From: Phoronis australis
Taxonomy: Eukaryota; Animalia; Phoronida
DNA length: 48,736 bases
NCBI GenBank assembly: GCA_002633005.1
Contig: NMRA01001052.1
Coordinates: 1 to 48,736 of the forward strand
Reading direction: 5' to 3'
Part shown: one piece after another, positions 3,020 through 48,736 of the stretch
How the letters are laid out: the number at the start of each line of letters is the position of its first letter
Numbering within the stretch: position 1 is the stretch's first letter
Program-made: the position numbers and the translations under genes
The notes under the pieces: model-generated
Databases searched by the model: none
Told to the model about the DNA's origin: nothing
The model's input: only the letters and a program-made list of their open reading frames with translations

Positions 3020-5574
3020 CTCAAGGACCAAACATAAGTATCTCAAAACCAGAAATTTTACTTAAGCAGGAATTAAAACAATCCAATACATTGAGATTGT
3101 TTTCACACAGAAGACCAAAAAAAAAAACAAATAAAGACTAAAATTCACCACGTCAAGACTGAAATTTATCACACCAGCACCTATAATTTATCAAGTGAGG
3201 ACCAAAAATTCTTCACTTCAGGATCAAAATAAAATACGACCGAACTGAAAATTTAATAAGCCACGTTCAAAAACTTACCACGTCAGTAACTTTACCCGCC
3301 AGGACACCCCGTCACCATCCCCAAGCATTGATCCTTCAAAGTGATAATGTTCGTACTATATGTATAAACAAGGGCTAAATGTTCAACCTCTTGCCGACAA
3401 GACATATTATCTTGGAAATGCGGTTGAATTTCTTTCGTATAATCCACGTTTTACAATAGATGCCAACGTATAGGTACACACTGGATTGCCATCATTGCAT
3501 AATGGGTGACCACGTTGTTTCCGGGCATGAAAAGAATTCTCTCCTGGCGTGATAAGTTTTCTGACGCAATAAATCCTGGTTGTCAATTGTTTTTAATTCT
3601 ACAGAGATTTCAATTCCTGAATAGAAAATGTGCGTTCTGAATTTTTCCGCTTCAGCTTTCCATTCAGCTAACTATTGCACATCACATTGTTTTTATTATC
3701 CCGTGGCGGCTCCACTGCAACGAATCACTTCTGGTACAACCTTCTGTAAATGACGTTCGTATTTTGCACATTTCTTCGGGGTAACAGTTTTCCAAGAGCT
3801 ATATGATCAACGGACACGTTTCTGTTTGGTATTCGGTTTTATTTTCTTTTTCAGGTAGTCCTTGAGCTCATGCTCTGAAAGTTTTGAAAACGCAACTCTT
3901 TCTTTACGCAGATACGTTTTCTGCCCGTGGGCACCGACTCGGTGAATTCATCAACCAAACATTTATTTTTGAAAATGCCCTCAAATTTGTACTTTTTTAA
4001 AACACCGTGTTGACCATAGTCGTCAGTGTAGAAAAGCGAAATGATCAAATTTGTAAACACTGCTCAAAGCACTTTTGTGGACATACGGAAACGCCAACGT
4101 CTCTGTCTTACAACGCTGCTTGTGCTTGGCATTTCTGATAAAGTGTTCTCATGCTGGAAACTTTTTAAGACTGAGCACCATTTCAAAAATTGTAGTTTTT
4201 CTTACAGCTGAGCACAGAAAAATTATTTTGTGATTTTAGGACTGAAACGGAACTAAATCTCGAGTGGTGACTGATTAAAATTGGCAACACTCGGGGAGGG
4301 TGGCGTTACAAGCCAAACATGTAGTTGCCACTTCTCATTCAACGTCACCTACTACCTGAGGTGGCCAGATCATACGCTATGAATATCACCAGCCGCTTTG
4401 CTTCTCAAAAGTGCACCTTGATGTATTTTCTATCGTTTTTTGCCATCGCAATCGCTTTACCAAAGATTCACGCACATATGCCGCGTAGAGACAAATACCT
4501 CTTCACCACGTAATCACATCTTGCCGTTCACAATTGTTTTATTTTGCATAATTTGTCAATATGTTGTTGACATAAAATATTTATTTTTGGAACAACGTGA
4601 ACGACCAACTGATAGGGGCCTACGTGTATATGTAACTAGCCCAGATTTTAACGTCACCGATACATGAAAACAGAATGCGCAAAGCTACAATTAATTGGCT
4701 GTAGCCCCAACAGTGGTCATTCCGTGTTTGATGTCACCGTCTCAGTTCGTGGAAATAGTTACCATAGTATGATTTCGAAGTTACAGCCGTCGAATTCCAT
4801 GGGTTCAGGGCATACTGGACCGTGAATTTCGCGTCTGTACTGCAAGGGTCAATACTATGAAAATAAAATCCACGGAGTGAGAGCTCTTCGCGGTGTAACA
4901 ACTCACTCACTAATCCATCATCAATGGCGCTTCATAGGAGACCAGCGAATTACTTAAAACACGTAAAAATGATTCAGTTTTGCGTTACACAAACAAAATC
5001 AATTGTGGGCGAAGACTGCGAAAAACAGCCGCGTTTACAAAATGACTATACAGCGTTGTATTGACCGGGAAGCAACCGATCTAATACAATTTGTTAACGT
5101 CACGAGTCAAATTAAAGATCAAATGTAAAGAAAACTTTCACGTTTTTCATCCAAAATTTGTTGAATCGTCCATAATCCAAAGTTTACTAATGCCGCTTGC
5201 CTTCAACCTTCGAAGTAGTGGTGTTACACAACCGACGTGAACTCATGTAACCGAGACAGCAAAACTAGGTTAATTTATTTGACCCTGTGCTAAGACGAAT
5301 ATGCATCGACACGCAAAGTGGTATGAGCCTGACAACCTATTACGCAACTGCTACTCTAGCCTAAAAATAGCAGCCGACCTGCTGGTCGGCTGATGGCCGG
5401 TCGGCTAAAGGGTCGGCTGAAGGGTCGGCTGTGGGGTCGCCTTATGAGTCGGCACTGCGGGCGGCTGTCGGTCGGCTAATTTTTAGCCGACCGGACGGCA
5501 AATTTGCCTACCGGTCGACGGCTAGTCGTCGACCAATTTCCGACCGGGCGGACAAAATTTCGTTATTTGTGCTG
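3020..5574. repeat. Copy B of the duplicated segment, ending in the same transposon terminus (about 5370..5574)
   Basis: Direct alignment to 1..1677. Ends ...aatttcgttatttgtgctg|TA. Confidence 0.9.
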
Positions 5575-7565
5575 TATAACGATTTAGGAGCTAAACTTAA
5601 ACTCCACGGACAAAAAATACTGAAATCTTTGTTTATGATTGCGTGAGTTCTTTGTGTAACCCCTTTCGACAAGTACAGTACACGGTCATGACACACAGTT
5701 TCTTCAGTTAGACAGCAGTGTTTTCCACATGTGGGAATTCCTTACAAAAACCAACTCATAGCAACCATCTTCAAAAGAGATACTATTCTTGTGATAGTAC
5801 GGAGACAGTAACATCACTTCATGTCTAACCATCGTGAGTAGTCCTTTCGTGTAATTCACAAATAGTGGTCTTCACTATCTTTAAAATTCCACCCTTTCGT
5901 TGGCGACAATCCTACTGTATTTTTTCACATTTTGGTTGTTTGTGTCGAGTGGCTGTGCTGTGTCCGAATGTTTTGTTTTTTTCGAAGAGTTTGCAATCTC
6001 AACTTTCATTTTTGAATACTTGGTAGTATCGGAGTTACATGTACAGTGGGACAAAGGGATATTTCACCCAAACAGCTCCACCGAGAGAGGTTTATCGTCT
6101 GAAATGGGACACATTAAGATGAAAGGCTAAACATCATTAAGCTTAGAATAAAGAGTGACAGTGCCTTCCACCGCCGTGTACTGGTCCCAAAACGATATAG
6201 GGAGTGACTTCCTTCATCATGAAAGACGGTTGCAAGAGGCCACAAAAAACAGGAAAATAGGGGTAATCGATTCCAACATTGAGCCCTCTCTCCTTGAGCG
6301 ACTCCTTAAGTATTTGTCAATAAAAACATAAAGAGGGTTGCCACTTGAGTGTCACCAGTGGCCAAGGGCGGGGAACCTAAATATGAAAATGTCAAATATC
6401 AGGGGAATGCGTTGCAAATTTAGTGATCTGTCTGGTCATCATTTTTTTCTCAAGTGATATACAGTGTACAGTTTCGAGAAAAAAATAAAGTGAAGCGAAA
6501 GTTTTGTATTCGCAAAATTGGCTCGTTGAATTAAAAAATCCAATAAATTCGTACGTTCCGCAAAAGCTTCGCTTTCCAAATTTTCTCGATTTTTCGAAAT
6601 ATATGCATGTTTGATTTCGTGCACGTTTACAAGTGCGTTTAGAAGACCTGTGCCGCGAAAGCGGAAACCTTAACCACAATATCCTGGCCAGGGTCTTCAA
6701 AAAGTAGACCATGCACTGATACAGGGATATTAAATGTTCTCATGACTTTCCCTCTTATTTGTATTTCTTAATGTTTCATTACTCGACTGCCAGCGTCCCT
6801 ACGCCTACGTCGGTTGCCACGGTTTAACCCTGACGTCTGGAATTTTTTGGGAGGCCGTGTCCCCCCAGCTTCCTACGGCCCTGAAGTATCTCACTGACAC
6901 CCATCGCAGATCATCACATATGTTGCATGTTTTCTTGGCTCATATCCTCCCACTCCTGATTGAACACGTCATTTGTTAGAGCGAGTTCTGAACACACTTC
7001 TGCCATCCGGTTTATGTATGTCAGCTAGACACAAAAAATCATCTATGAACATTCCAGCCACATACTGGGTACTTCAGCTTGAGCTTTAGCCCTAATTACC
7101 GATTCCTCAGGGACTTAATCTACTGGTTCTTGGTCATTCACTTGCTTTGTTGAGAACTTTTCTAAGTTTGTGCAAAACCAAATGGTTAAGGGAGTTTTCC
7201 ATTTTTACTTTCAATCCCTTATTTTGAATGCCTCCGCATTGCACACCCTCTAAACAGCTGGGCCTCACCTGAATCATGATTAGTATACAACGACTTTAAG
7301 AAGACACTTATTTATATTTTATTATACTTATTTTCCTATTTACAAACAAATGGTCATACTCAATGTTCAACATAAATTTTCAATCAAGAATATTAAAAAT
7401 TTGCTTTTTAAAATGTTCACTTTGTTGCATATTGATTGGCTTCCATTGTATTGGCATGCAATTGATTTGATATCAGGTGTACTACCGGTAGTTCTGACTA
7501 TACCCCCAGACCTATATCATTTGATGGATAAAATGGGAGTTGTGAAATGAATATTGGTTATGGTT

Positions 7566-20466: not shown

Positions 20467-21108
20467 TTAATCTAAAGACGAATCCGAATCCGAACTCAAT
20501 AAATCAGTATGTCCTATATAGTTCTGTAAAAGATTGCCCGGTCTATCGTAATCACCATTAATGAGACCGTTGTAAATATCGTCCGCGATCGTTACTTGTT
20601 CATAAAAATAAGACGCCTGAAACACAAAACGACAGGCTACATTATTGTCACATTGCTGTACATATTGTCTGACGTGTCTCCATAGCCTTCTGGGCATAAC
20701 GTTGTCCTGTGTGAATTTGAAGAGGTGTCTGCAAGTCATATTAAGGAGATGGATCGCCAACCGACTCATTTGTGAGTCGGTCACATGTTTATACATGATG
20801 GCAATTGCCTCTGGAGATTCTCTTTGTTCCTCTTCTATTGCTGCAATCACTTTTGTCGTGTCCTCTTCTATTGCCAAAAAGAAGAAGGCGTCCAACTCAT
20901 GGCGGTTACAATAAGTTTCGCACACTTGGATGTACGTTTTAAGCATTATATACAATTTTGAGGAAAGGTTCTTTCTTTCATATCGCTCTAATTGAAGCAA
21001 TAACCGGCGTACTCTATTTCTACATTTTTCTTCAGCAACGTCGCTGATTCTATCATTTTTACCATCCTGTTGTCGGTTGAATAGCAAGTGAATCATGTTG
21101 CGAGCCAT
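20467..21108 (-). CDS. Polinton cargo orphan protein, 213 aa, predicted helical with an internal two-fold repeat and acidic Ser-rich tail
   Basis: ATG-initiated 642-bp open frame with protein-like composition in stop-rich surroundings. Upstream there is a polypyrimidine/AG acceptor (21183-21182) and two CCAAT boxes (about 21236-21240 and 21270-21274). No recognisable family. Confidence 0.65.
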   Translation of the reverse strand: MARNMIHLLFNRQQDGKNDRISDVAEEKCRNRVRRLLLQLERYERKNLSSKLYIMLKTYIQVCETYCNRHELDAFFFLAIEEDTTKVIAAIEEEQRESPEAIAIMYKHVTDSQMSRLAIHLLNMTCRHLFKFTQDNVMPRRLWRHVRQYVQQCDNNVACRFVFQASYFYEQVTIADDIYNGLINGDYDRPGNLLQNYIGHTDLLSSDSDSSLD

Positions 21109-21503
21109 TGTGTAAAGTCACCAACCTTGAGTCACTTCTTCTTTTCGGGTGATCTTATCCGTTTCTAGACGCTTTGATGCGCTGCAACAAAAAAACAAAA
21201 CCTTTAAGTATACGAACAAAAAACGGTCTCAACTGATTGGTACAACGCCATTGCAAATACAAGCATGGGATTGGTCAGTGTTTAGGTATTACGAAACAAT
21301 ACGGAATTAGACCGATAACGCAAACGAAAGCCAAGAACTCTTTTGAACGGAAGAGACCCAGCAGATGACATAGAGGGAGGCGGTAACATAGCACGACCAC
21401 AGTTAATGGAACTGCTAAGAGATATTAAAATTAAATATCCGATTAAGGTTGTACTGATCTGAGCACGGATTCTGTTAACACTGTTCTAGACGTGATTATC
21501 GTG

Positions 21504-22310
21504 TTATAAATAAAGTGATGAACTCTTTTTCATTGTTTTCTTACCCATATCACTTATCCATTCTTTAACAAACTGTGCTATTGTGTGCTGCCGTTGCAAG
21601 CTTTCAGCCTCCCGCAGGTGCCGCCCCACCTTCTCCCTCCGTGACCAGTTCACGCGATACGTTTGACCTCTTACATACTCCCCATCCATGACCATATCCC
21701 CGCACCAGTACCAGCTACCACACGCGGGACACTCACCGTCCGTGTTGCTGAATCGGCGGAGCTCACTAATGCAGCGGGGATGAACCCATGCCCCGCAGCA
21801 GGCAATTTCCGTCTGTTGCGGTGGCGTTCCGAACACCCGGCGGGGGAGAGCTTTCGTCAAGTGCTCACCGCACGCAGCACAGGCGTGAGTATATTGGATC
21901 CCCTTTTCCACCTCCAGTAGTGATGTGAAAAAGTTTGCCACTCCGCGATGCTGACCGAGATTATACACGGTGTAAAATATTGCTGCGGGGCATTCCAATA
22001 GATCGACGAAACCCTCTATTAATTTGTCGTACGCCAGGTAAAGGCCTAGAGACAAAAGGGTCGCGTAATCCATTGTGTGGTTCGTCAGGTCATGGTGTGT
22101 GATACAGCAATCAATTCCTTTTACATAGGAGGAAAATTTAGACAAAACAAACCGGTTAATTTTTCCAATTTCGGCACCTATGATTAACGAGATAGACGGT
22201 GTGTGACCGTGGAATCTGCGCAGTCCAGCAAGGACCCCTATATTTTCGGCGTCGGTCACGGAGAAACACAGAGGGTAAACGCCATCGGGAGTCTTCAGTG
22301 TCACTTTCAT
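21504..22310 (-). CDS. Polinton cargo RING-type zinc-finger protein (putative E3 ligase), 268 aa
   Basis: 807-bp ORF containing CAAC-x21-CCGAWVHPRC-x13-CPAC (RING/RINGv-like ligand spacing). TATATAAG lies about 60 nt upstream and a ttttgattttAG acceptor 3 nt before the ATG. Confidence 0.78.
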   Translation of the reverse strand: MKVTLKTPDGVYPLCFSVTDAENIGVLAGLRRFHGHTPSISLIIGAEIGKINRFVLSKFSSYVKGIDCCITHHDLTNHTMDYATLLSLGLYLAYDKLIEGFVDLLECPAAIFYTVYNLGQHRGVANFFTSLLEVEKGIQYTHACAACGEHLTKALPRRVFGTPPQQTEIACCGAWVHPRCISELRRFSNTDGECPACGSWYWCGDMVMDGEYVRGQTYRVNWSRREKVGRHLREAESLQRQHTIAQFVKEWISDMGKKTMKKSSSLYL

Positions 22311-22862
22311 TTTCTAAAATCAAAAGATTACAGTAAAAAAAAAATTGTCTCTAGTCCCGCGGTTACTTATATATGGTCGTTATCTAAGAAAGATCGTCAT
22401 AATTAGTCTTTGTACTTGTTCTTTTTTCTATAACCCATGCAAAAAATGACGACGCCCACTCCTTTCGTTCAGCGCAGCATTTTCGTGAGACTCGCTCACC
22501 AGTTTATAAATAATTTAAACGCTATTTTTACATTTCTATTTGGTCCCATCGTGTATAAATAATACTTGACTAAATTAAAAGCTTTACTTGCCTGTTACAT
22601 GTATGTTAGTTTTTTGCAACACATCGTCCAACTCAGACTGCACTGTTTTTATCTAGACATGATACTTCAAATAGTGATACATCGTATAGGATCCCTTCGT
22701 CTACTAACAATTGGTTTATTGTAAAGACGCGTGTACTACGATCCAGGGCACCCACGTACTTTTGAAGTAATTTGACTCCACACAACGAAGACAGAAAGTT
22801 TGTTTATACGAAAAAGAAAATAAAAATATTGAGGCAATCGGAATTTTTTATTAGAAACTCAC

Positions 22863-24412: not shown

Positions 24413-25149
24413 TGTTACATGATAATTTTTATCGTAATCTATTTTGCCCGGGGTACGCCACGAGCTATGTTGCAGAGTAAAACAAGAGGATTGGGAATAT
24501 TTGTCATTTATTATGACGTAATAGATAACACTAACTAAGACTCTGCAAGATGGGCATGCAGAAAACGCCCACCGGCGTGTACAATGAATATCCCTGCAAG
24601 AGGGAACAAAACAAAAGAACTGCCTGAAGGGCTTAAAGGAAAAGTACAGAACATGAACACAAAAACTGAAAAACCTGAAAAAACCTAACAGGAAGTGTAT
24701 ACGTGCAAAGAGAAAGTGGAACCGCCACCCGGGATGGGGGGTGGGGAAAAAATGAAGAGAACGAACGTAGGTCTTGTAGACGACGAGGTAGGTGGCTGAA
24801 TGAGAGACCACGTTGAACAGAACAAAGGAAATATGGGCGACCAATCAGGAGTCGCGCAGAGAAACGTATGAATACAAAGTACGCCCTAGAGGCTATAAAT
24901 AGAGATGAGTAATGCAAAATAAACCCTAAGGACTGGTCTCAAAATAAAGAGACAAGTGTCAAAATAATGACGATAAATGCATTTAATAAGTTAAAATTAA
25001 TTTATCGTAATCTATTTTGCCCGGGGTACGCCACGAGCTATGTTGCAGAGTAAAACAAGAGGATTGGGAATATTTGTCATTTATTATGACGTAATAGATA
25101 ACACTAACTAAGACTCTGCAAGATGGGCATGCAGAAAACGCCAGTGACA
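24413..25149. repeat. LTR-like unit with near-identical ~142-bp direct repeats (24428..24569 and 25001..25142)
   Basis: The two copies differ only by one G in a G-run. The unit is bounded by TGTTAC...GTGACA and encloses CCAATCA, TATAAAT and AATAAA. No TSD found. Confidence 0.6.
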
Positions 25150-27880: not shown

Positions 27881-30074
27881 AAACAAAGTGGTCCTTACAA
27901 GAACCGACGCAAAAAATAACACGAGAAGTTTTTTGTCAGTTACATAAACACATTTATTACCAGATATTCCATTGGAAATTGAAGAACAGACAGACACAAT
28001 ATATTTTTGTAAATTACTGTAACATGATTTTTCATGCTTAGAAAGTCTAAAAAGTTCAATTGTCAGCAACTCAAACTGGACTGAACGATCGTTCCCTTAG
28101 CACACGAATTCAAATGCATGGTGATGGGAAGTAGCAGCGGCTTTAGAACGAGACTGTCGTAATTTATTATATATTGTTTGCAACTGTCGGTGTAATGACT
28201 AAACTACAGAAATCCTCCGATATTAGGACACAACCACCAATTATATTGACACTGATGGAATAAAAACATTGCCTTTATCTCTGAATAAAATAAGCCGTTA
28301 TTACACAGTCATAACAGGCGGCAGATCACGCAGGTCACCATCCTTTCGCGCAGCCTAAAATATAGGCGGCTACCGAATTTTACAATATGTGGACCTTTCA
28401 TATGTGGTCTTTTGACTTGTTTTGTCGATGTTTTTGTTTCACTGAGGCGGACCTCTTTTGCCCACTGCGCCAAATGGAGGGCTCATTCGAGCCCCCGAAC
28501 ACCCCTTCATGGGTGTGACGTGATCACTTTATTAACATTTAATTTCAAATATCTCGATTATCTGATGATTCCTTCTCCAAGTACATAATTTCAATTTCTA
28601 GAATATACATAACAACACGTTTTGTTTTGTATTGTATTACAGTGATATGTTCCCGTATCTAGGTCCATGCATAATTAACATATATAGAAAGCGAAAAATA
28701 TTAGCCGAAACACATTACCAGTAAAATGTTTTCTAATTGTGGCTTTAAAAGGAACTTGTCTAGTTGTAAGCAAAACAAGCTTTGTGATTTCAAGATGTTA
28801 GCCAACCTACAAGATTAGTTTACATGAAACAACATTTACAAACAATAGTTGAGCCATTAAATTAGGTCTAAAATGAAGGCTCTTTATAATGATATAGATT
28901 ATTTTTTCTCATTTAGGCAATAATTATACAATTACTTTTGGAATTGATGCAAAATTGTTAATTTCCCAATTATTCCTTCTTGTTATTGTCATTCTAGAAA
29001 ACACACAACTTACGCTGCCCATAAAATATGTACAAGCTAGGTTCTTAAAATGACAAGTTACAATACCCATACATTAGGTACTTATCTTACCGTTAGAGTT
29101 ATACAGGACAATTTCATACGTACATGTATATAGAATATAACTCAGTAAAATTTAAATTGACTTGTTTTTAATGAAATTTAGAAAAAAGAAAGGCACCTTC
29201 CAAGAAAAAGAACATGTTCAAAATCATTACCAAAGTGTGCATGAGAAATTTGAATGTGGCCATTTTGAGACGATGCGTTCCAACATAACCTTAACGATAT
29301 ATTTTTCAGGTAATATCATAAAAACATGTTCTCATACTTCTTACAAGATACACGGTGATATACCGGGTATCAATGCATGAACTTTTTAATCTAAATAATT
29401 CACAATCAAAAAGTACTTTGAGGCACATTATGAGAGCCTTTGAGAAAAGTTTTATTGAAAACCAAATGAGCGAAAATAATATGTGAGCCTCAGAAGAAGG
29501 GGGCCTTAGAACATTATTACAGACCCAAGCCTGAAGACCACAAGGCGGGGCTTTCGCTTTGCTTTTTGTCCACGGTGAGTTGGTGTCCCTACAAGGGTCC
29601 CCGCTTTTTAGCCACTGTCAGGTGAAACCGCTATAGTAATATAGAATCCGCGTTTTTTCGTCGTGTTCTATTTTAAGCACATGAATGAGTCTTTGAAAGT
29701 AATAATCTTTAATGATGTTTCGGTAGACTTGTAGCCAACAACTGAATTTCCCGCCTTGAGCCACGTAAGACAAGGTCACGTCATAAAAATGTGAGCTGTT
29801 GTCCGCTGCCCTAATAAATAGGGTTTTAAATATCCAGCGTGTTTTCTTTCCCTTATTTTGGGCATTATCACAACTATGGATAATAAACACGCCAATTAAA
29901 AAGTTTTTGTGGTTATCGGATTGGGTCCGATGGCATCCCTTGGGCATCAATCTAACAGATGATTAATCAAAAAATGCTTTTGTTACACTTGCTAGTATGT
30001 GCCTAGTTTGAATTAAGAAAAGACCTAGAAGACACCAACAATATTATTCGCTATACTATGTAAAGTTCTTTTTC

Positions 30075-30742
30075 TAATAAATACTTGATTTACCAAATTA
30101 TTCGAGGATTCGTACCTCCATGTGAAAACGCAAAGGTTTCCAACAAAAGCCAAGTCCCCAATTACCCGCACGCAACGCGCAAATGACATTGGGTATCAAG
30201 TCACACCATGATGAAGGAGGGACTTCGACAGGAGGACAATGTGTATTTTAATTTCTTGTTTTCCTCTCTCGCAGCTTACTTTCCAAAAGGCATCAGTATC
30301 TGAAGCTGTCCCTGTGAAATTTGTTGATAATGATATTCTCAAATGTCTTCTCGATGACTGCGAGAAATTTGTCGTTATGTGGCATATCAATTAAATTTTG
30401 ATTTTCTGAACAGGTAAAAGCATACCTTTCAATAGCTTTTAAATTGTTTGCGGGAATAACTAACTATGACAGACTCAGACCATTATAAATTGGAAACATG
30501 ATATGTTTTAGTTCGTTTCCCCAAGATTGAGATGGAGTAAATTATTGAGATTGTTAAATAATACGAAGGGAACGAATTTAATGTTGTTGTAAGATAAATC
30601 TAGCACGCGCACCATGTGGTGAATGTATCGTATTACGTTTCAATGAATTTCTTGACTAGTAAGTAGTTCTCATAATTTCTAAGCCCTTGGACAATGCTAG
30701 CAAAGAGGAGTTTTCGCATGTTAGTACAAAACCTTTGCATTA
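30075..30742 (-). pseudogene. Decayed LRRNT-LRR-hinge-TM1 portion of the GRL101-like GPCR
   Basis: Minus-strand conceptual translation after the stop: *CKGFVLTC...Y*SRNSL.../VRVLDLSYNNIKFVPFVLFNNLNNLLHLNL/GNELKHI...LS*LVIPANNLKAIERYAF...DSFRY*CLL...*NTHCPPVEVPPSSWCDLIPNVI/RCVRVIGDLAFVGNLCVFTWRYESSNNLVNQVFI. Homology is lost at the start of TM2. Confidence 0.88.
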
Positions 30743-31550
30743 TCAATTTGCGGGGCACTCCATAACCAAATCGCATAACTTCTCGTCATCGCCTTTCGGG
30801 CAATCTTCCACGCCATTACAAACTTCAGTTTGGTCCAAACAGAAGAGCTCCCCTTGACACCTGAAGGCTCCAGGGCACGAGTACGTCTCACACGATTGTT
30901 CATCATATCCCCCAATGCAGTCCCAAACCCCATCGCAAACCCTGCGACGAGGTAGGCAGTAACTATGTGGACATTTAAATAAACCCGGGCACTCAAAGTC
31001 CCGACAATTCTTAAGGTGACTGGAATCCCCACAACCTATATCTGGATTGTTCCTATCATAAATGCATGCATGGTGTCGTTCAAAACAGGATGGGTGATCT
31101 TTTCGACAGCGAGATTGGTGAGCAGAAGGGCAAAATGGGGTGAAGTTGTACACTGGTTTTAGTTTAAAAGATTTGGTTTTCCCAAATACCTCTCTACGTT
31201 TGAAGTGCCTTTCAGAAAAAAATTCATCCTCCTGAAAAACACCAGTGCAATCGATTTGCAAATTCTGTCGTTTTTTTCCGGAAATACAAGTGCCGTCGAA
31301 ACATTTGAAACCACCAAACTTATTGCAGTTCTGCTTCCAATCGCAAAAGTCATTACTCTCATCTGAACTATCGGAACAATGGGCAACAAAATCGCACGTA
31401 AGTGTTTTGTCAACACATTGTCCGGACAAACATCTGAACTCGCTAGTAGAACAAGGTGGGAATAAACAGAAATCTTCGTCGCTGTTGTCCTCGCAGTCGT
31501 CTTGGAAATTGCATACTGCAGAAAGTGATATGCACCTGCCATTGCTGCAT
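30743..31550 (-). CDS. Exon 2 of GRL101-like ectodomain protein: about 6 LDL-receptor class A repeats, stop TGA at 30745..30743
   Basis: Acceptor tttgttccAG|A TGC AGC completes F-R-C-S-N-G-R-C. Repeats include CSNGRCISLSAVCNFQDDCEDNSDEDFC and the GRL101-typical CPGLFKCPHSYCLPRRRVCDGVWDCIGGYDEQSC and CPGAFRCQGELFCLDQTEVCNGVEDCPKGDDEKLC. Confidence 0.9.
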
Positions 31551-32916
31551 CTGGAACAAACGTAGTCATTTGAGGTGAGAATAAGAATAAAGAAATCTGA
31601 AATTTATCGGAAAACCTTTTTTGAATTTTCTTGTGAGCAGATATTGTAAACTTCTTGAAAAATCTGAAAATGAGTTTTCTTAAATTCTGCAGTTAATTGT
31701 GACCAGTGGACCGAAATTAGTGGGTTTCTTTGAATGATGACTACGCACATTACATTAAATCTGTATAATATTAACCACATGGTAACCTGAAGTAATGCTA
31801 ACATAGTGGTGTTTCTTAGGGTTTGTTTGTAAGCAAAATTTAAATAACAGGAAAATGTATTAAAATTTGATTCCCCTTAAACTTAAGCAAAGTATTCATA
31901 AAAAATGCTATTATATCAAAAATCCTTAAATTTAGTCACACGCTCTACTTTTCTCTTGCTGATGATACGGACTTTTAAATTTTTTCCATTTTTTAAATTT
32001 AGCTGTCATGCAATTTGTTTGCGTAAAGCGCTACCTGCTGAGAATTCGACCAGCCAATCAGAAACGCTGGTGTAAAAAAAATTAGGAGGAAAATTCAGTG
32101 CTCTATATCCCCTAGAGGGCACGCATGGAACCAATGACAGCTGGCCCATAGCCATGAGTTTGAGAGACGGCTAAGCTGACCAATCAGGGCGCAGCAATCT
32201 GGACCCACCTTCATTTTTCGCCGTCTCTAACAACACGTCGTCGGTTAAACTGATTTATTCTTGACATTTTTGCAAGGGGCGGAGCTTACAAGAGGTCAAC
32301 TGTGAGGTCAAGATGAATTCGTTTCTACAGAAACTAAACTAATTGCCAGTGGATGTTTTTAGTTTAAAACCAGATTTTAATATGCTTTGATTCCCGAAGA
32401 AGCACTTTATGTAAAATTAGCACATAACAATTTTTTGAATTTGTTGACGTGGAAGCTTTGATTGTTATTCATATGGTACGCAACGTAAATCTTTTTCAAA
32501 ATAAAGTAATGTGACTCGACATTCCTTAGTTGCCGCACGTAAAGCAAGAATATTTTGTGCGCAAGTGCATACCTACATGAAATATCATGCATTCACGAAC
32601 TACTCAAACAACCCTTACACTAAGGTAGGAAGTCCATACATTATGATTAAAGAAAATGATGTATTTTACACTTAGGGATGAATTCGTGAACTAAGGTAAT
32701 CAATTCGCTGATTGACAGTTAGCATAACACCGACATCTATGTCAAGGAGATGGCAGATGACTCGTCATTGTTATACAAAGTTTACGAGATTGTTAACGAT
32801 TCAATAAAGATCTGTATTCAATTGTCGAAAAGAAGTACTACTATTCATAGGCACCTCTTAATGGTGAACGTTATGTCGCCCATTACAATATTTACCTGTT
32901 TTTGCTTTTATCTTAC
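31551..32916 (-). other. Phase-2 GT-AG intron, 1366 bp
   Basis: Donor AG|GTAAGA at 32916 and acceptor CAG at 31551. Splicing restores an in-frame LDLa repeat (YCGRKQFRCSNGRC). Confidence 0.88.
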
Positions 32917-35900
32917 CTAAATTGTTTGCGTCCACAGTAATTGCATGAAATCTCGTCCTCACCACTTGTACAGTCGTTCACACCATTGCAGAGGCTTAAT
33001 ATGCTTACACAGGTACCGTCATTGCACTTCCATTGGGACTTTGAACATCTGGTTTCCCGCTTCTCGTCTATACTTTTTTCGCACATCACGCTTAACGGAA
33101 ATACGCTACCGAGGTTTTCAGCATTGCATTTTACTTGACGCTTTGTCCAATGTATAGGATTGTCTTCATCTGCAACAGCCTGATTCCCAACATAGTTTCC
33201 AAAAATAACTTCGCAAGTAGTTAAAGAAATGTTTCGTAACCACACAGAGCCATACTCAGGACGAAACCTCCATACAGTCATTAATGCATGTATTTGATTT
33301 CTATCCGGAGTAGCAAGTTTGCCACAACGACTACGGCATGAAGAGAATGCAGAAGTAAAATTCAAGACTTCATCAATGTTATTTTGACTTGTTATCATTC
33401 GATAACATTTTTTATTGTTGTAAGTCCAACCTGGTGAACACAATTTTGCGGTTGAAAACTGATTGAAGTCTTTAACGTGTAACCGACTCGGTTTATCGCA
33501 ATCTGGACAAGACTTTGCACTTGCTTCGCAAATCACCGTTGCATATTCTAAACTAAAACTGCAGGGGAATGAGAACCAACTGTCACCAATGAATGGACTT
33601 TGTATTACCATTACTGTGCAATTTGCTTCTAGATTTTTCGTTGGTTGCATCATTCTTTCGGATATCACCTGCAGCATGTCGTTACTGTAATTTTCATTAG
33701 AGCTCCATAAGTATGGTCTGGCAACATTTCCTGGTTTATACCATTTGGAAAATGTTACTGGGTTACCATTGTTCCATCTTCTCGTTAGCTTGTCATCTTG
33801 TACCATTCCTAAGTAGATTGCAACATAGGGGGAAACAGAATAAACCGATCTTTTCCACTTTGTTTTCAGCATTTCCATAAAAAAGTCATGTTCTTCTTGT
33901 GTCTCCAGGGATACAAGATCGCCGCCCTTTTCAATGCACTTGGATCTTGCTTCGTACCATGTTGCTGACGTCTGACTACCATTATATAGTACAGCATAAC
34001 ATTTACCATTAAAGTAATAGTCATTTTCATAGAAGCATGAGTGAGACCAGTCTTTTTCTTGAATGTTCTGTTGAATGACTTGGTAATCAATTAGCATCGG
34101 TGTGTTAATAAATGGCCGATAGCGAATGATTATTTCATCAGTAAACAATGTTTTGATAGAAAAATATTGGTCATGTACTAATTCGCAAAGGTCACTGTAT
34201 AGATCGCTGATCTTATTGCTCCATCTGCTTATGGTATTTGCGCATGAGTCCTTATATATTATTTCCAAAATCTCGAGCCCTTTCTTTACTTTATCATCGC
34301 AGAATTCGTGTACCACAAGTTCATAATAAGAGGGATTGAGCTTTTCTTTGTTACAGTTTGGATCACCATGGTCAACGTACGACAATACCCACTCAATCTG
34401 GTCAACATCACTGGGTCCTTGCAATAAGCCACATGCTGATGTTACAATGGTGTCTGAGGTGAGAACTCGGTAGGGCTGATAGATTTCACAATTGTTTACG
34501 ATATATTCAGGTAAAATGTCCAGCGTCACATCGAAATCGGAGTTTGGCCACCCACACTGAGAGAAAACTCTGATAATGGAATCCGATTTGATTGGGCCGT
34601 TCGTGTTGTATTGAAAAGGTCCGGTATATTTGCAAAATGGTTTCGAGTTTAAAATAGATATATAGTCAAGGCAGGTTTTGTTGCAAGCTTCTTTTTCCAC
34701 CCGTATGTCGTGTACCTTGATTCTGCTAACAGATATCGGGACTGTAGTACTAACAGATTCAACGTGGCGAATCTCTTGAGCAACCAAAAAATTTCTTTGT
34801 ATTGTTATGCATGATTCTTGATCAGGGTTAATCATCATTGGCGCATTTCTCATTGAGTAACCTTTACACTCAAATTCAACTATATGAGCAATAATTCTTG
34901 TCTCTTTCCTACCAGACAAAAGGGTGAAGAACCCAATTTTGAGTTGTCCAGAGGACGTAACAAAACGTGATACTATCCGATTTGAAATGCTGTGGACGGA
35001 CCGTGGATATTTACCACAAACTGGCCCCACTAAAGGTGCTGAGGTATTTTTACCATCGTACAAAAATAAACCTTGGAATGAACAGTTATCATGTTCAAAT
35101 AAGTTTATTTCTAAAAAGGTTAACTTGAGGAACCGATTTTTTCGACTTGCTCTAAATGTCCACATACACTGCCCCCTTAATGCGAAATAAGGAAATGGGC
35201 CGATTTTAAAAACAAACGGAGTCGCAGATACAATTACAGGTTTGTTTGGCGTACGTGAATATTGGGAACATACATAAGGTATGTTGCTTTGTCTGGCATA
35301 ATAAGATATTTGAACAGTTGTATTCAGGTTTAAACTAGCCCCCAAGCGCAAGCAAACTAACATATGAAAGGCAATGGACACGTGAGAGCGAATGTTTACC
35401 GATTTGTTACTGAAAGATTTGGTCGTAGTGCGCAAAAAAGGAAGTTCTAGTGGTCCTTCGTAAAACAAAAGTTCTGAATGACTGTTGCTGAAATTTAAAA
35501 TTGTAAAATTAGTATCGACGATGAAACCGTGTGGCGCCTCAAGATACCATACATAAAAATACGGTGTGATAACAGAAAAATCGGCAAATGAAAAGCTTAG
35601 ATTGCGATAAATCAGCATATTTGGTTGTCCCATTGTTTTAAGTGATAACAAGTGTTTTCCTACGCCATTCAAATACATCGAGTGCAGTATTTGCTCGTAA
35701 GAGCATTCGAATTCCCAATGAGAGCCATGCAAAACAATAGTTACAAAGAGCAGAGTTCCCTCAGAAATCACGTGCCAGGGAACTTTTCTCCCACATGTAC
35801 GTTCCACTATTTGCTTGTTTGAGTCAGCAATTTCAAAGTAATCGGATGAACAATTAGGCCCATTAGATGAAACCAAAAACCTATTAACTTGAAGTTTCAC

Positions 35901-36431
35901 TTTGTTTCCGTCGCGAGCAGTAAGCGTCCAATTGCACTTGAGCGGGTAATCGTGACTGTGGAGATCTTTCATAATCGAGAGTTTACCATGTTTGGCATCG
36001 TGGTGGCAAAGTGATACGTTTGTTGAATTTAGTTTCATAATGTCATACGAAACCAAGAACTTTGCAGACGCACGTAAATTTGGTCGACGTAGTAAAAGTT
36101 GAATATCTTGAGTTTCTTTCCAAACAGTTCCAATGTCACCGTGTGTGATATTGGAAGTCCTATTATTGTGCACCAGCTGCAGCGAACAGTTATGTATCTG
36201 CACATCAACGACAGACAGGTACATTTTGTGAAGAGCAGGTGTGTGAACTATCCACTCCAAAGTATTACTTGAAAAGTTGTCATTCTCGCTGTATCCGTAA
36301 GAAATTTCACCTTTTTTGACATTTCCATGAACGCAGAGCAAGGTAGCCATGAAGACAACACCAAGCTTCAGGCAAACACGCCCACCGAACATGTTTGTCA
36401 TGTTCAAAACACTGGCGTGTCTGACTAACAT
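32917..36431 (-). CDS. Exon 1 of GRL101-like ectodomain protein: signal peptide, CUB domains, two C-type lectin domains, first LDLa repeat
   Basis: 3.5-kb open frame. Hydrophobic N-terminus (VCLKLGVVFMATLLCVHG). CUB motifs CNWTLTA..GNKVKL.V..F.V.....C..DYFEI.D...CG and CMWTF...LKLTF..INL....C....L.LYDG......L.GPVCG. CTL motifs FNGKCY...TWYEARSKC...GGDLVSLET.EE..F and CSPGWTY...KCY. LDLa CSKSQWKCNDGTCVSILSLCNGVNDCTSGEDEISC. The start Met may be one of the next downstream ATGs. Confidence 0.92.
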
Positions 36432-48477: not shown

Positions 48478-48479
48478 TA

Positions 48480-48736
48480 CAGCACACATCACGAATTTTT
48501 GGCCGACCGGTCGGAAATTGGTCGACGACCGGCCGTCGACCGGTCGTCTAGCCGACCAGCAGCCGACCAACAACGGTCGGCTAGGAGCCGTCTACTGAGT
48601 CGCCTCTGTGGTCGGCACTTGGGTCGGCTAAGTGGTCGCCTAGCGTAGACGACCAATTCGGATTAAGCGTGTCCTTGGTCGGCAATTACCATTTTATGAC
48701 TTAACGGGTGAACTTTGGCCAAACAAACATTTTACT
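48480..48736. mobile_element. Inverted terminus of the GCCGAC-rich DNA transposon family, inserted into the LINE fragment
   Basis: TA|cagcacacatcacgaatttttggccgaccggtcggaaattggtcgacgacc is the reverse complement of the termini at 1677 and 5574. The element runs out of the window. Confidence 0.75.

Follow-up and report, generated by a model that had tools for sequence, protein, structure and literature searches.

Introduction

GRL101-like receptors, the type C2 members of the G protein-coupled receptors that bear leucine-rich repeats (LGRs), present a collinear order of lectin-like domain, LDLa repeats, leucine-rich repeat (LRR) cap, LRRs, hinge and first transmembrane segment (TM1). According to the accessible parts of two reports, lectin-LDLa-LRR GRL101 receptors stand in tandem clusters in Biomphalaria (SudRes2; PMC12297450) and have expanded in apple snails (PMC6573481), and such clusters rearrange, with haplotype-specific truncations (PMC12297450, PMC6573481). 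Incomplete, haplotype-truncated copies are noted in the Biomphalaria cluster and, in the text available, are not described as secreted (PMC12297450). Here we describe a minus-strand gene with the same collinear order in a 48,736-nucleotide stretch of the phoronid Phoronis australis (assembly GCA_002633005.1, contig NMRA01001052.1, positions 1 to 48,736; hereafter the window). It differs from the type C2 receptors in that the LRR and seven-transmembrane (7TM) half is disabled here, and TM2-7 are missing. This GRL101-like duplicate has probably been kept as a secreted CUB/lectin-like/LDLa protein that binds a ligand or serves as a decoy; the protein, its secretion and its ligand are what we infer.

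Soluble derivatives of receptors have been described in other systems. The insect proteins SDR and DR2 are insulin receptor decoys, of which SDR is secreted and antagonistic, as far as the accessible text of the source goes (PMC7253209). They resemble the present case as separate genes that derive from a receptor duplicate, have lost the signalling part and are kept by selection. They differ in being derived from tyrosine-kinase receptors, and in being old and conserved across many species, whereas the Phoronis gene descends from a G protein-coupled receptor, is known so far from one species and from sequence, and has its lost half still readable in the 3' untranslated region (UTR). Lgr4-ED (PMC4154783) and RXFP1/LGR7-truncate (PMC3477067) are, in the portions of the reports available, soluble splice isoforms reported to act as antagonists. 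Although these are likewise secreted N-terminal fragments of a G protein-coupled receptor that bears LRRs, they are isoforms of genes that still make the full receptor, and Lgr4-ED retains its LRRs. The Phoronis gene, by contrast, is truncated in the genome itself and has no LRRs left. The accessible parts of two further sources (PMC6267866, PMC2246102) add nothing on soluble forms. Across titles and the opening lines of abstracts, with subscription papers and supplements barely covered, no separately encoded soluble GRL101 ectodomain was found.

Results and discussion

A receptor ectodomain gene ends within its LRR cap

The coding sequence (36431-32917 joined to 31550-30743) comprises 4,323 nucleotides, or 1,440 codons plus a TGA, and contains no internal stop. 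An earlier, sequence-only reading of this DNA had proposed about 1440 open codons over two exons with a canonical intron, and an LRR-cap motif broken by two stops. Both proposals are borne out: the intron joint is present in a contig from run X4 and in one read of RNA run X7, and the motif reads CPAN-stop-stop-CKG at 30745-30740. The coding part of exon 2 therefore ends at CPAN-stop, and the first cysteine of the LRR cap is separated from the partners that it has in the family. The parts of the gene are as follows.

32917..36431, minus strand: coding exon 1, 1,171 codons plus 2 nucleotides, covered by X4 contigs over 36396-32917 apart from a 17-nucleotide gap and free of indels there; encodes an N-terminus resembling a signal peptide, the CUB region, a middle region with no assignment, the lectin-like domains and the first LDLa repeat
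36324..36392, minus strand: predicted signal peptide running from Met14 to residue ~36, judged from hydropathy
35733..35963, minus strand: CUB domain, residues ~157-233, Pfam CUB E 1.9e-10
34929..35177, minus strand: CUB domain, residues ~419-501, best stretch for Pfam CUB (whole-protein E 2.2e-22)
33522..34013, minus strand: C-type lectin-like domain, residues ~807-970, Pfam Lectin_C E 3e-8 over 822-902
33072..33443, minus strand: probable second, degenerate lectin-like domain, residues ~997-1120
32943..33050, minus strand: LDLa repeat 1, residues 1128-1163, Pfam E 1.4e-7
31551..32916, minus strand: intron, 1,366 nucleotides, GT-AG (GTAAGA...TTCCAG), phase 2
30743..31550, minus strand: exon 2 coding part, with five LDLa repeats (four canonical, one degenerate) and a Cys-rich linker
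30740..30745, minus strand: tandem stops TGA-TAA inside the LRR N-cap motif
30028..30745, minus strand: decayed remains of the LRRs, the hinge, TM1 and the first part of TM2, 718 nucleotides, now 3' untranslated
27953..30742, minus strand: apparent 3' UTR, ~2.8 kb, apparently intronless, reached by X4 contigs as far as 27973

A high-copy repeat lies within the intron, near 32011-32084, and the only N of the window is at position 1132.

The predicted product has the marks of a soluble ectodomain. Candidate starts are Met1 (ATG 36431), Met11 and Met14; because the most hydrophobic 19-mer of the product spans residues 16-34 (Kyte-Doolittle 1.75), translation may begin at Met11 or Met14 instead of Met1. 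Pfam finds LDLa in exon 2 over four stretches (E 1.4e-24), and a pattern search of the product finds five repeats with the complete C-x4-D/H-C-x4-D-E pattern plus one degenerate repeat. For residues ~520-800 there is neither a Pfam match nor a meaningful PDB match. The product carries 23 N-glycosylation sequons and 81 cysteines, and hydropathy reveals no C-terminal membrane or glycosylphosphatidylinositol (GPI)-like segment, so that by this measure the locus is a gene of its own for a receptor ectodomain with a signal peptide and no anchor. In an Atlas comparison the product matched CUB, lectin and LDLa clusters only, at 0.75-0.90. An AlphaFold model built from a seven-sequence alignment was unusable (mean pLDDT 32).

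Calcium-dependent C-type lectins bind sugars through EPN or QPD together with WND. A motif search of residues 791-1440 found QPT at 929, and EPN, QPD and WND were all absent. By profile, the domain appears lectin-like in fold; since it lacks the calcium-dependent motifs, sugar binding is not established. The second lectin-like domain is proposed from a Pfam UL45 match (E 0.018, under the curated cut-off) and from cysteines that are collinear in relatives.

The gene is transcribed and spliced, and its transcript runs through the stops

Run X4 derives from a different sample than runs X1 and X3, which come from one sample, possibly the source of the assembly, and can test the assembly only. Contigs from X4 extend over 36396 to 27973, interrupted at 33283-33299 (17 nucleotides) and 29517-29594. 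One of them skips exactly the intron 31551-32916, and unique intron bins have no X4 cover; because the intron is skipped, we read X4 as a transcriptome. Run X7 contributed 42 reads at a match of at least 99%, with a depth of about 0-3.6 and one junction read. Its exonic cover is almost all first mate on the plus strand, which in usual stranded libraries indicates minus-strand RNA. The spliced transcript, whose existence the sequence-only reading had left for RNA to decide, is thus present in X4 contigs and X7 reads, and the gene is transcribed weakly or in few tissues. An AATAAA at 27953-27958, a candidate poly(A) signal, lies 15 nucleotides past the last X4 base and would place the true 3' end beyond the contig evidence; further AATAAA sequences end at 28168, 28533 and 29456.

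The X4 contigs cross the tail stops unspliced, and no joint other than the annotated intron is well supported. This bears on the idea that a rare isoform splices from exon 1, or from inside exon 2, to a distant intact LRR/7TM exon, in which case the tail would be an internal duplicate that has died, and the short form either a by-product or an alternative soluble isoform. The idea is in keeping with the soluble splice isoforms of the family, at least as the accessible parts of the reports describe them (Lgr4-ED, PMC4154783; RXFP1 truncate, PMC3477067), and RNA depth is too low for minor isoforms, with the window being all of the genome covered. Against it stand the jointless passage of X4 contigs through the stops, the lack of any LRR/7TM profile match within 30 kb downstream, and final LDLa repeats whose conservation extends as far as the stop, no splice being seen beyond. 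Splicing from exon 2 to an intact LRR/7TM exon, which had been named as an outcome that would overturn the sequence-only reading, was not seen in these contigs, and we regard a rare full-length isoform as quite improbable.

Short X4 contigs also represent further related copies, at 30369-30543, 31053-31203 and 31484-31564; they show 19 differences in ~175 nucleotides and 11 in ~150 nucleotides. Other family members thus seem to be transcribed in the X4 sample.

The LRR-hinge-TM1 tail is decayed in two samples

The tail was aligned frameshift-aware to a profile of eight full-length relatives, and scored 67.8 versus 13.5-18.1 in six shuffles; hinge and TM1 scored 34.6 versus 12.5-17.8 in ten shuffles. 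In the window, this eight-receptor profile has its matches in the LDLa repeats and over 30733-30028. The alignment reveals six stops (30745, 30742, 30658, 30466, 30295 and 30250) and three net frameshifts (about 30621, 30517 and 30174). Lesion counts vary somewhat with gap and shift penalties, although the first six events are identical under both settings. The sequence-only reading had described about 670 bp with about six stops and three frameshifts; the lesion counts stand, whereas the damaged length is 718 nucleotides. Two of the four hinge cysteines are lost. Beyond the LDLa repeats there is no translated LRR array, the homologous DNA being present but disrupted behind TGA-TAA, and the hinge (CC...C...SSC) and TM1 survive only as decayed DNA. 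As that reading had also stated, TM2-7 are not found: a profile search of the window returned stray matches of E 0.22 or worse. Stop-codon readthrough was rejected as an explanation, given the tandem stops, four further stops, frameshifts and missing TM2-7.

Repeat-like sequence at 29580-29950, recognized from extra diverged contigs and raised depth, begins shortly after the TM1/TM2 remnant, and may be the trace of an insertion or deletion by which TM2-7 were lost.

The lesions are not artefacts of assembly. An X1 contig is identical to 27890-31508 (0 differences), and X3 pieces agree. An X4 contig over 30312-31364 carries substitutions at 30573, 30651 and 30851 and a 7-nucleotide insertion after 30619. 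None of its differences lies in a stop codon, and therefore the first four stops are shared by the second sample. As for the two hinge stops, they are untouched by the three of four X4-contig differences that are listed. The TGA-TAA, whose constancy across haplotypes had been in question, is unchanged in X1, X3 and X4 contigs. With the identical X1 contig and the first four stops in a second sample, misassembly was rejected.

The ectodomain and the tail had different histories

Were decay uniform, the probability that all nine lesions fall in the last 718 of 5,038 nucleotides is 2.4e-8; at the tail rate ~54 lesions would be expected in the 4,320 nucleotides of coding sequence, and 0 are observed. 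The six stops date the tail to 0.17-0.21 substitutions per site (95% range 0.06-0.46). Under simulated neutral decay, the coding sequence stayed open in 0 of 400 trials at 0.06 substitutions per site or more, and in 7 of 400 at 0.02. Of the family-conserved cysteines, residues 796-1440 retain all (44 of 44) and the tail retains 4 of 7 (Fisher p 0.0017); simulated neutral decay at 0.19 leaves 64% of cysteines. Conserved columns are kept at 29 of 31 positions before the stop versus 31 of 48 in the tail. Lesion clustering, tail age with simulation, and cysteine retention show that front and tail had different histories. Zero disablements in 4,320 nucleotides and full cysteine retention also led us to reject the view that the whole gene is a pseudogene.

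Present-day selection is addressed, among these tests, by pN/pS alone, and the result is marginal. The 22 coding haplotype differences listed (21 of the 22 in X4, one from X7) comprise 10 synonymous, 12 missense and 0 nonsense changes, giving a pN/pS of 0.33-0.44 with a one-sided p of 0.011-0.045, depending on the assumed transition bias. X4 contigs align to the coding sequence with 0 indels, and all three listed indels fall in the tail and UTR. Two earlier proposals fare well here. That uniform neutral decay cannot leave 4.3 kb clean beside such a tail agrees with the clustering probability and with the simulation, and that selection persisted on the truncated product finds support in the retained cysteines and, to a lesser degree, in pN/pS, as does purifying selection on the ectodomain.

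A different account of the clean front is a recent unequal crossing-over between tandem copies, which put the 5' part of a functional receptor onto a long-dead pseudogene tail. The front would then be clean from recent selection on the full receptor, and the truncated product may be functionless. The simulations leave room for such recency, as the neutral frame is open in 158 of 400 trials at 0.005 and in 60 of 400 at 0.01 substitutions per site. GRL101-like clusters are moreover tandem and rearranging, with haplotype-specific truncations, in the accessible parts of the snail reports (PMC12297450, PMC6573481). What argues in the other direction is a pN/pS below 1 among present-day haplotypes and a first lesion placed at the LDLa/LRR boundary. 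Comparison with a second copy, given below, also bears on this account, which we hold to be unlikely.

A collinear second copy keeps the frame at two lesion sites

Paralogs were visible as contig pieces only, at 80% likeness. Runs X1, X2 and X3 hold a collinear second-copy contig, of 6,381 nucleotides in X1, with a depth of 21.8 versus 21 for the contig of the window. Between 31508 and 30262 it aligns in four pieces, at 90%, 88%, 88% and 83% identity; the stretches separating them cannot be aligned, nor can the intron. We take this contig as a probable paralog, though it may be a deeply diverged allele. It continues for ~5 kb, with its sequence readable only in part.

The second copy is longer by 8 nucleotides at the first frameshift site and by 1 at the second, a net of 9 that keeps the frame; therefore, the frameshifts of the window look derived. 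Near 30621, the lesion seems to combine two deletions, of 1 and 7 nucleotides, because the second copy is 8 nucleotides longer there and X4, from which the 7-nucleotide deletion is missing, has seven extra bases. A 1-nucleotide deletion in both samples and a 7-nucleotide deletion that varies between them imply that the tail is still decaying.

The fusion account fits poorly with this comparison, as both halves are similarly far from the second copy in the aligned pieces (front 88-90%, tail 83-88%). Gene conversion, a related route to an intact front on an old tail, meets an X1 contig that is unbroken over 27890-31508 at depth 21, as the second copy is, and no near-identical donor appears among the pieces listed (455 shorter pieces lie outside these). 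A deletion-fusion, however, leaves no donor and is compatible with the missing near-identical copy.

One stretch of exon 2, 31118-31325 (206 nucleotides; degenerate LDLa repeat and linker), is less than 80% identical to the second copy at equal length, and is a fast-evolving but in-frame segment.

The gene is GRL101-like by descent

Among 22 relatives scanned, LDLa, LRR and 7tm_1 occur together in eight. Lineus and amphioxus contribute relatives named 'GRL101-like', and further relatives come from Lingula and Macrostomum; the members compared are Lineus XP_064640791 and XP_064640008, Lingula LOC106174585, Macrostomum PAA57333 and amphioxus LOC144862181. The product is 28-34% identical to relatives over 550-730 residues. 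A BLASTP alignment to the Lineus 'GRL101-like' protein P0107 reaches E 3e-87 over 692 columns, and the tail also matches the family profile. The whole CUB-lectin-LDLa-LRR-7TM order is found in Macrostomum P0166. Judged from this collinear homology, the gene can be assigned to the GRL101-like, or type C2, LGRs by descent. It has the several LDLa repeats of that type (five canonical and one degenerate); lacking the LRRs and 7TM, the product is not a G protein-coupled receptor.

A second Macrostomum protein, P0167, was considered as a parallel truncation and rejected, as it ends mid-LDLa repeat, probably at a gene-model break. The amphioxus GRL101-like protein P0056 (2,234 amino acids) combines CUB, LDLa, SRCR, lectin, LRR and 7TM with a C-terminal protein-kinase-like match (E 3.3e-10).

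A secreted product is the probable outcome

The anatomy of the gene, its splice, its transcription through the stops, the four stops in the second sample and the collinear second copy were all observed, and the gene is real and well supported at the DNA and RNA level. We propose that a receptor was duplicated, and that a nonsense change in the LRR cap then severed its signalling half. A stop codon without a downstream junction escapes junction-dependent nonsense-mediated decay. Because the LDLa-LRR-7TM block would all lie in the last exon, with no later junction seen, the message would escape this decay. The signal peptide would route the product into the secretory path with no anchor to hold it, secretion being predicted because of the signal-like N-terminus, the sequons, the cysteines and the lack of a C-terminal anchor. 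Selection on the front product would have freed the tail to decay into 3' UTR, and would have kept the front half through ~0.2 substitutions per site of tail decay.

The ligand is the least certain part of this proposal. An insulin-like core is expected to bind to the LRRs, and basic surfaces to the LDLa repeats, which is an author's hypothesis in the accessible part of the source (bioRxiv 2021.04.15.440029). Capture of an insulin-like core is unlikely because the LRRs are gone; binding would instead be through the LDLa repeats (basic protein surfaces), CUB or lectin-like modules, and the product might serve related receptors' ligands as decoy or carrier, or be a free recognition protein. The sequence-only idea of a soluble product is thus supported, while any action as a decoy would have to come from the CUB, lectin-like and LDLa modules, since the LRRs are lost. 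If the product is indeed secreted and selected, we lean towards a decoy or scavenger, and consider an independent secreted recognition or matrix role somewhat less probable.

Several points weigh against a selected, secreted product. The evidence stops at DNA and RNA, and expression is low. The reading of X4 as RNA departs from its marking as 'DNA?', itself a guess, and two of the three raw RNA runs, X5 and X6, show repeat-derived reads and are essentially without exonic cover over the 18-19% of each run that was read. The pN/pS test is marginal at 22 sites. An internal stretch, 351-369, reaches a Kyte-Doolittle value of 1.55, and the unpaired C-terminal cysteine could cause retention in the endoplasmic reticulum. 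The second copy is not established as an intact, conserved receptor, because, among the 20 of 37 tail differences that are listed (in two pieces), 19 are missense and one is synonymous. A truncated orthologue was not found in other species by word-index protein searches, which gave 0 matches for exon 1 and 3 and 2 distant matches for exon 2 and are weak evidence of absence.

The free cysteine also invites the view that the product is selected but tethered at the cell surface or along the secretory route, through that residue or through a full-length receptor partner, and acts as a co-receptor or dominant-negative. In favour of tethering, the first LRR-cap cysteine has lost its family partners, and the short X4 contigs of related copies (including one near 31523) suggest that relatives are transcribed in the same sample. 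Neither a membrane segment nor a GPI-like one is present at the C-terminus, however, and pairing has no direct evidence. To tethering we give the smallest chance of the alternatives.

A clean case of one gene half dying while the other is kept would supply, in the fossil tail, an internal neutral clock. It would mean that CUB, lectin and LDLa modules can have value without LRRs, offer a ready-made soluble reagent for ligand hunting in orphan CUB/lectin/LDLa GRL101 receptors, and serve as a warning that some GRL101 copies filed as 'truncated' or 'partial' in the immune and chemosensory clusters of invertebrates may in fact be functional proteins that are secreted. A bolder extension, doubtful at present, is that one nonsense change, eased by the intronless last exon, created a new selected secreted 160-kDa multi-domain recognition protein, and that expanded GRL101 clusters of invertebrates routinely spawn soluble partners. 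If true, annotation pipelines file such partners as pseudogenes or fragments, including in the immunity-linked snail SudRes2.

Other features of the window

Two adjacent intronless open reading frames (ORFs) on the minus strand, 21504-22313 and 20467-21117, encode 269 and 216 amino acids with no Pfam match. Near its C-terminus the 269-amino-acid ORF shows a RING-like Cys/His pattern, and in the Atlas it matches a zf-RING cluster best (0.92, 148 shared features; a lead only), followed by BTB clusters. The pair (20467-22313) is possibly of mobile-element or viral origin. It was rejected as the missing 7TM exon, having no Pfam or profile match.

Positions 1-1680 and 3020-5580 form a tandem duplicate (92-95% identity, ~3.0-3.9 kb spacing) with 12-nucleotide repeat arrays, and an inverted related copy lies at the far end of the window (48478-48650). 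Together these look like transposon ends. A 142-nucleotide perfect direct repeat occupies 24428-24569 and 25001-25142, 573 nucleotides apart.

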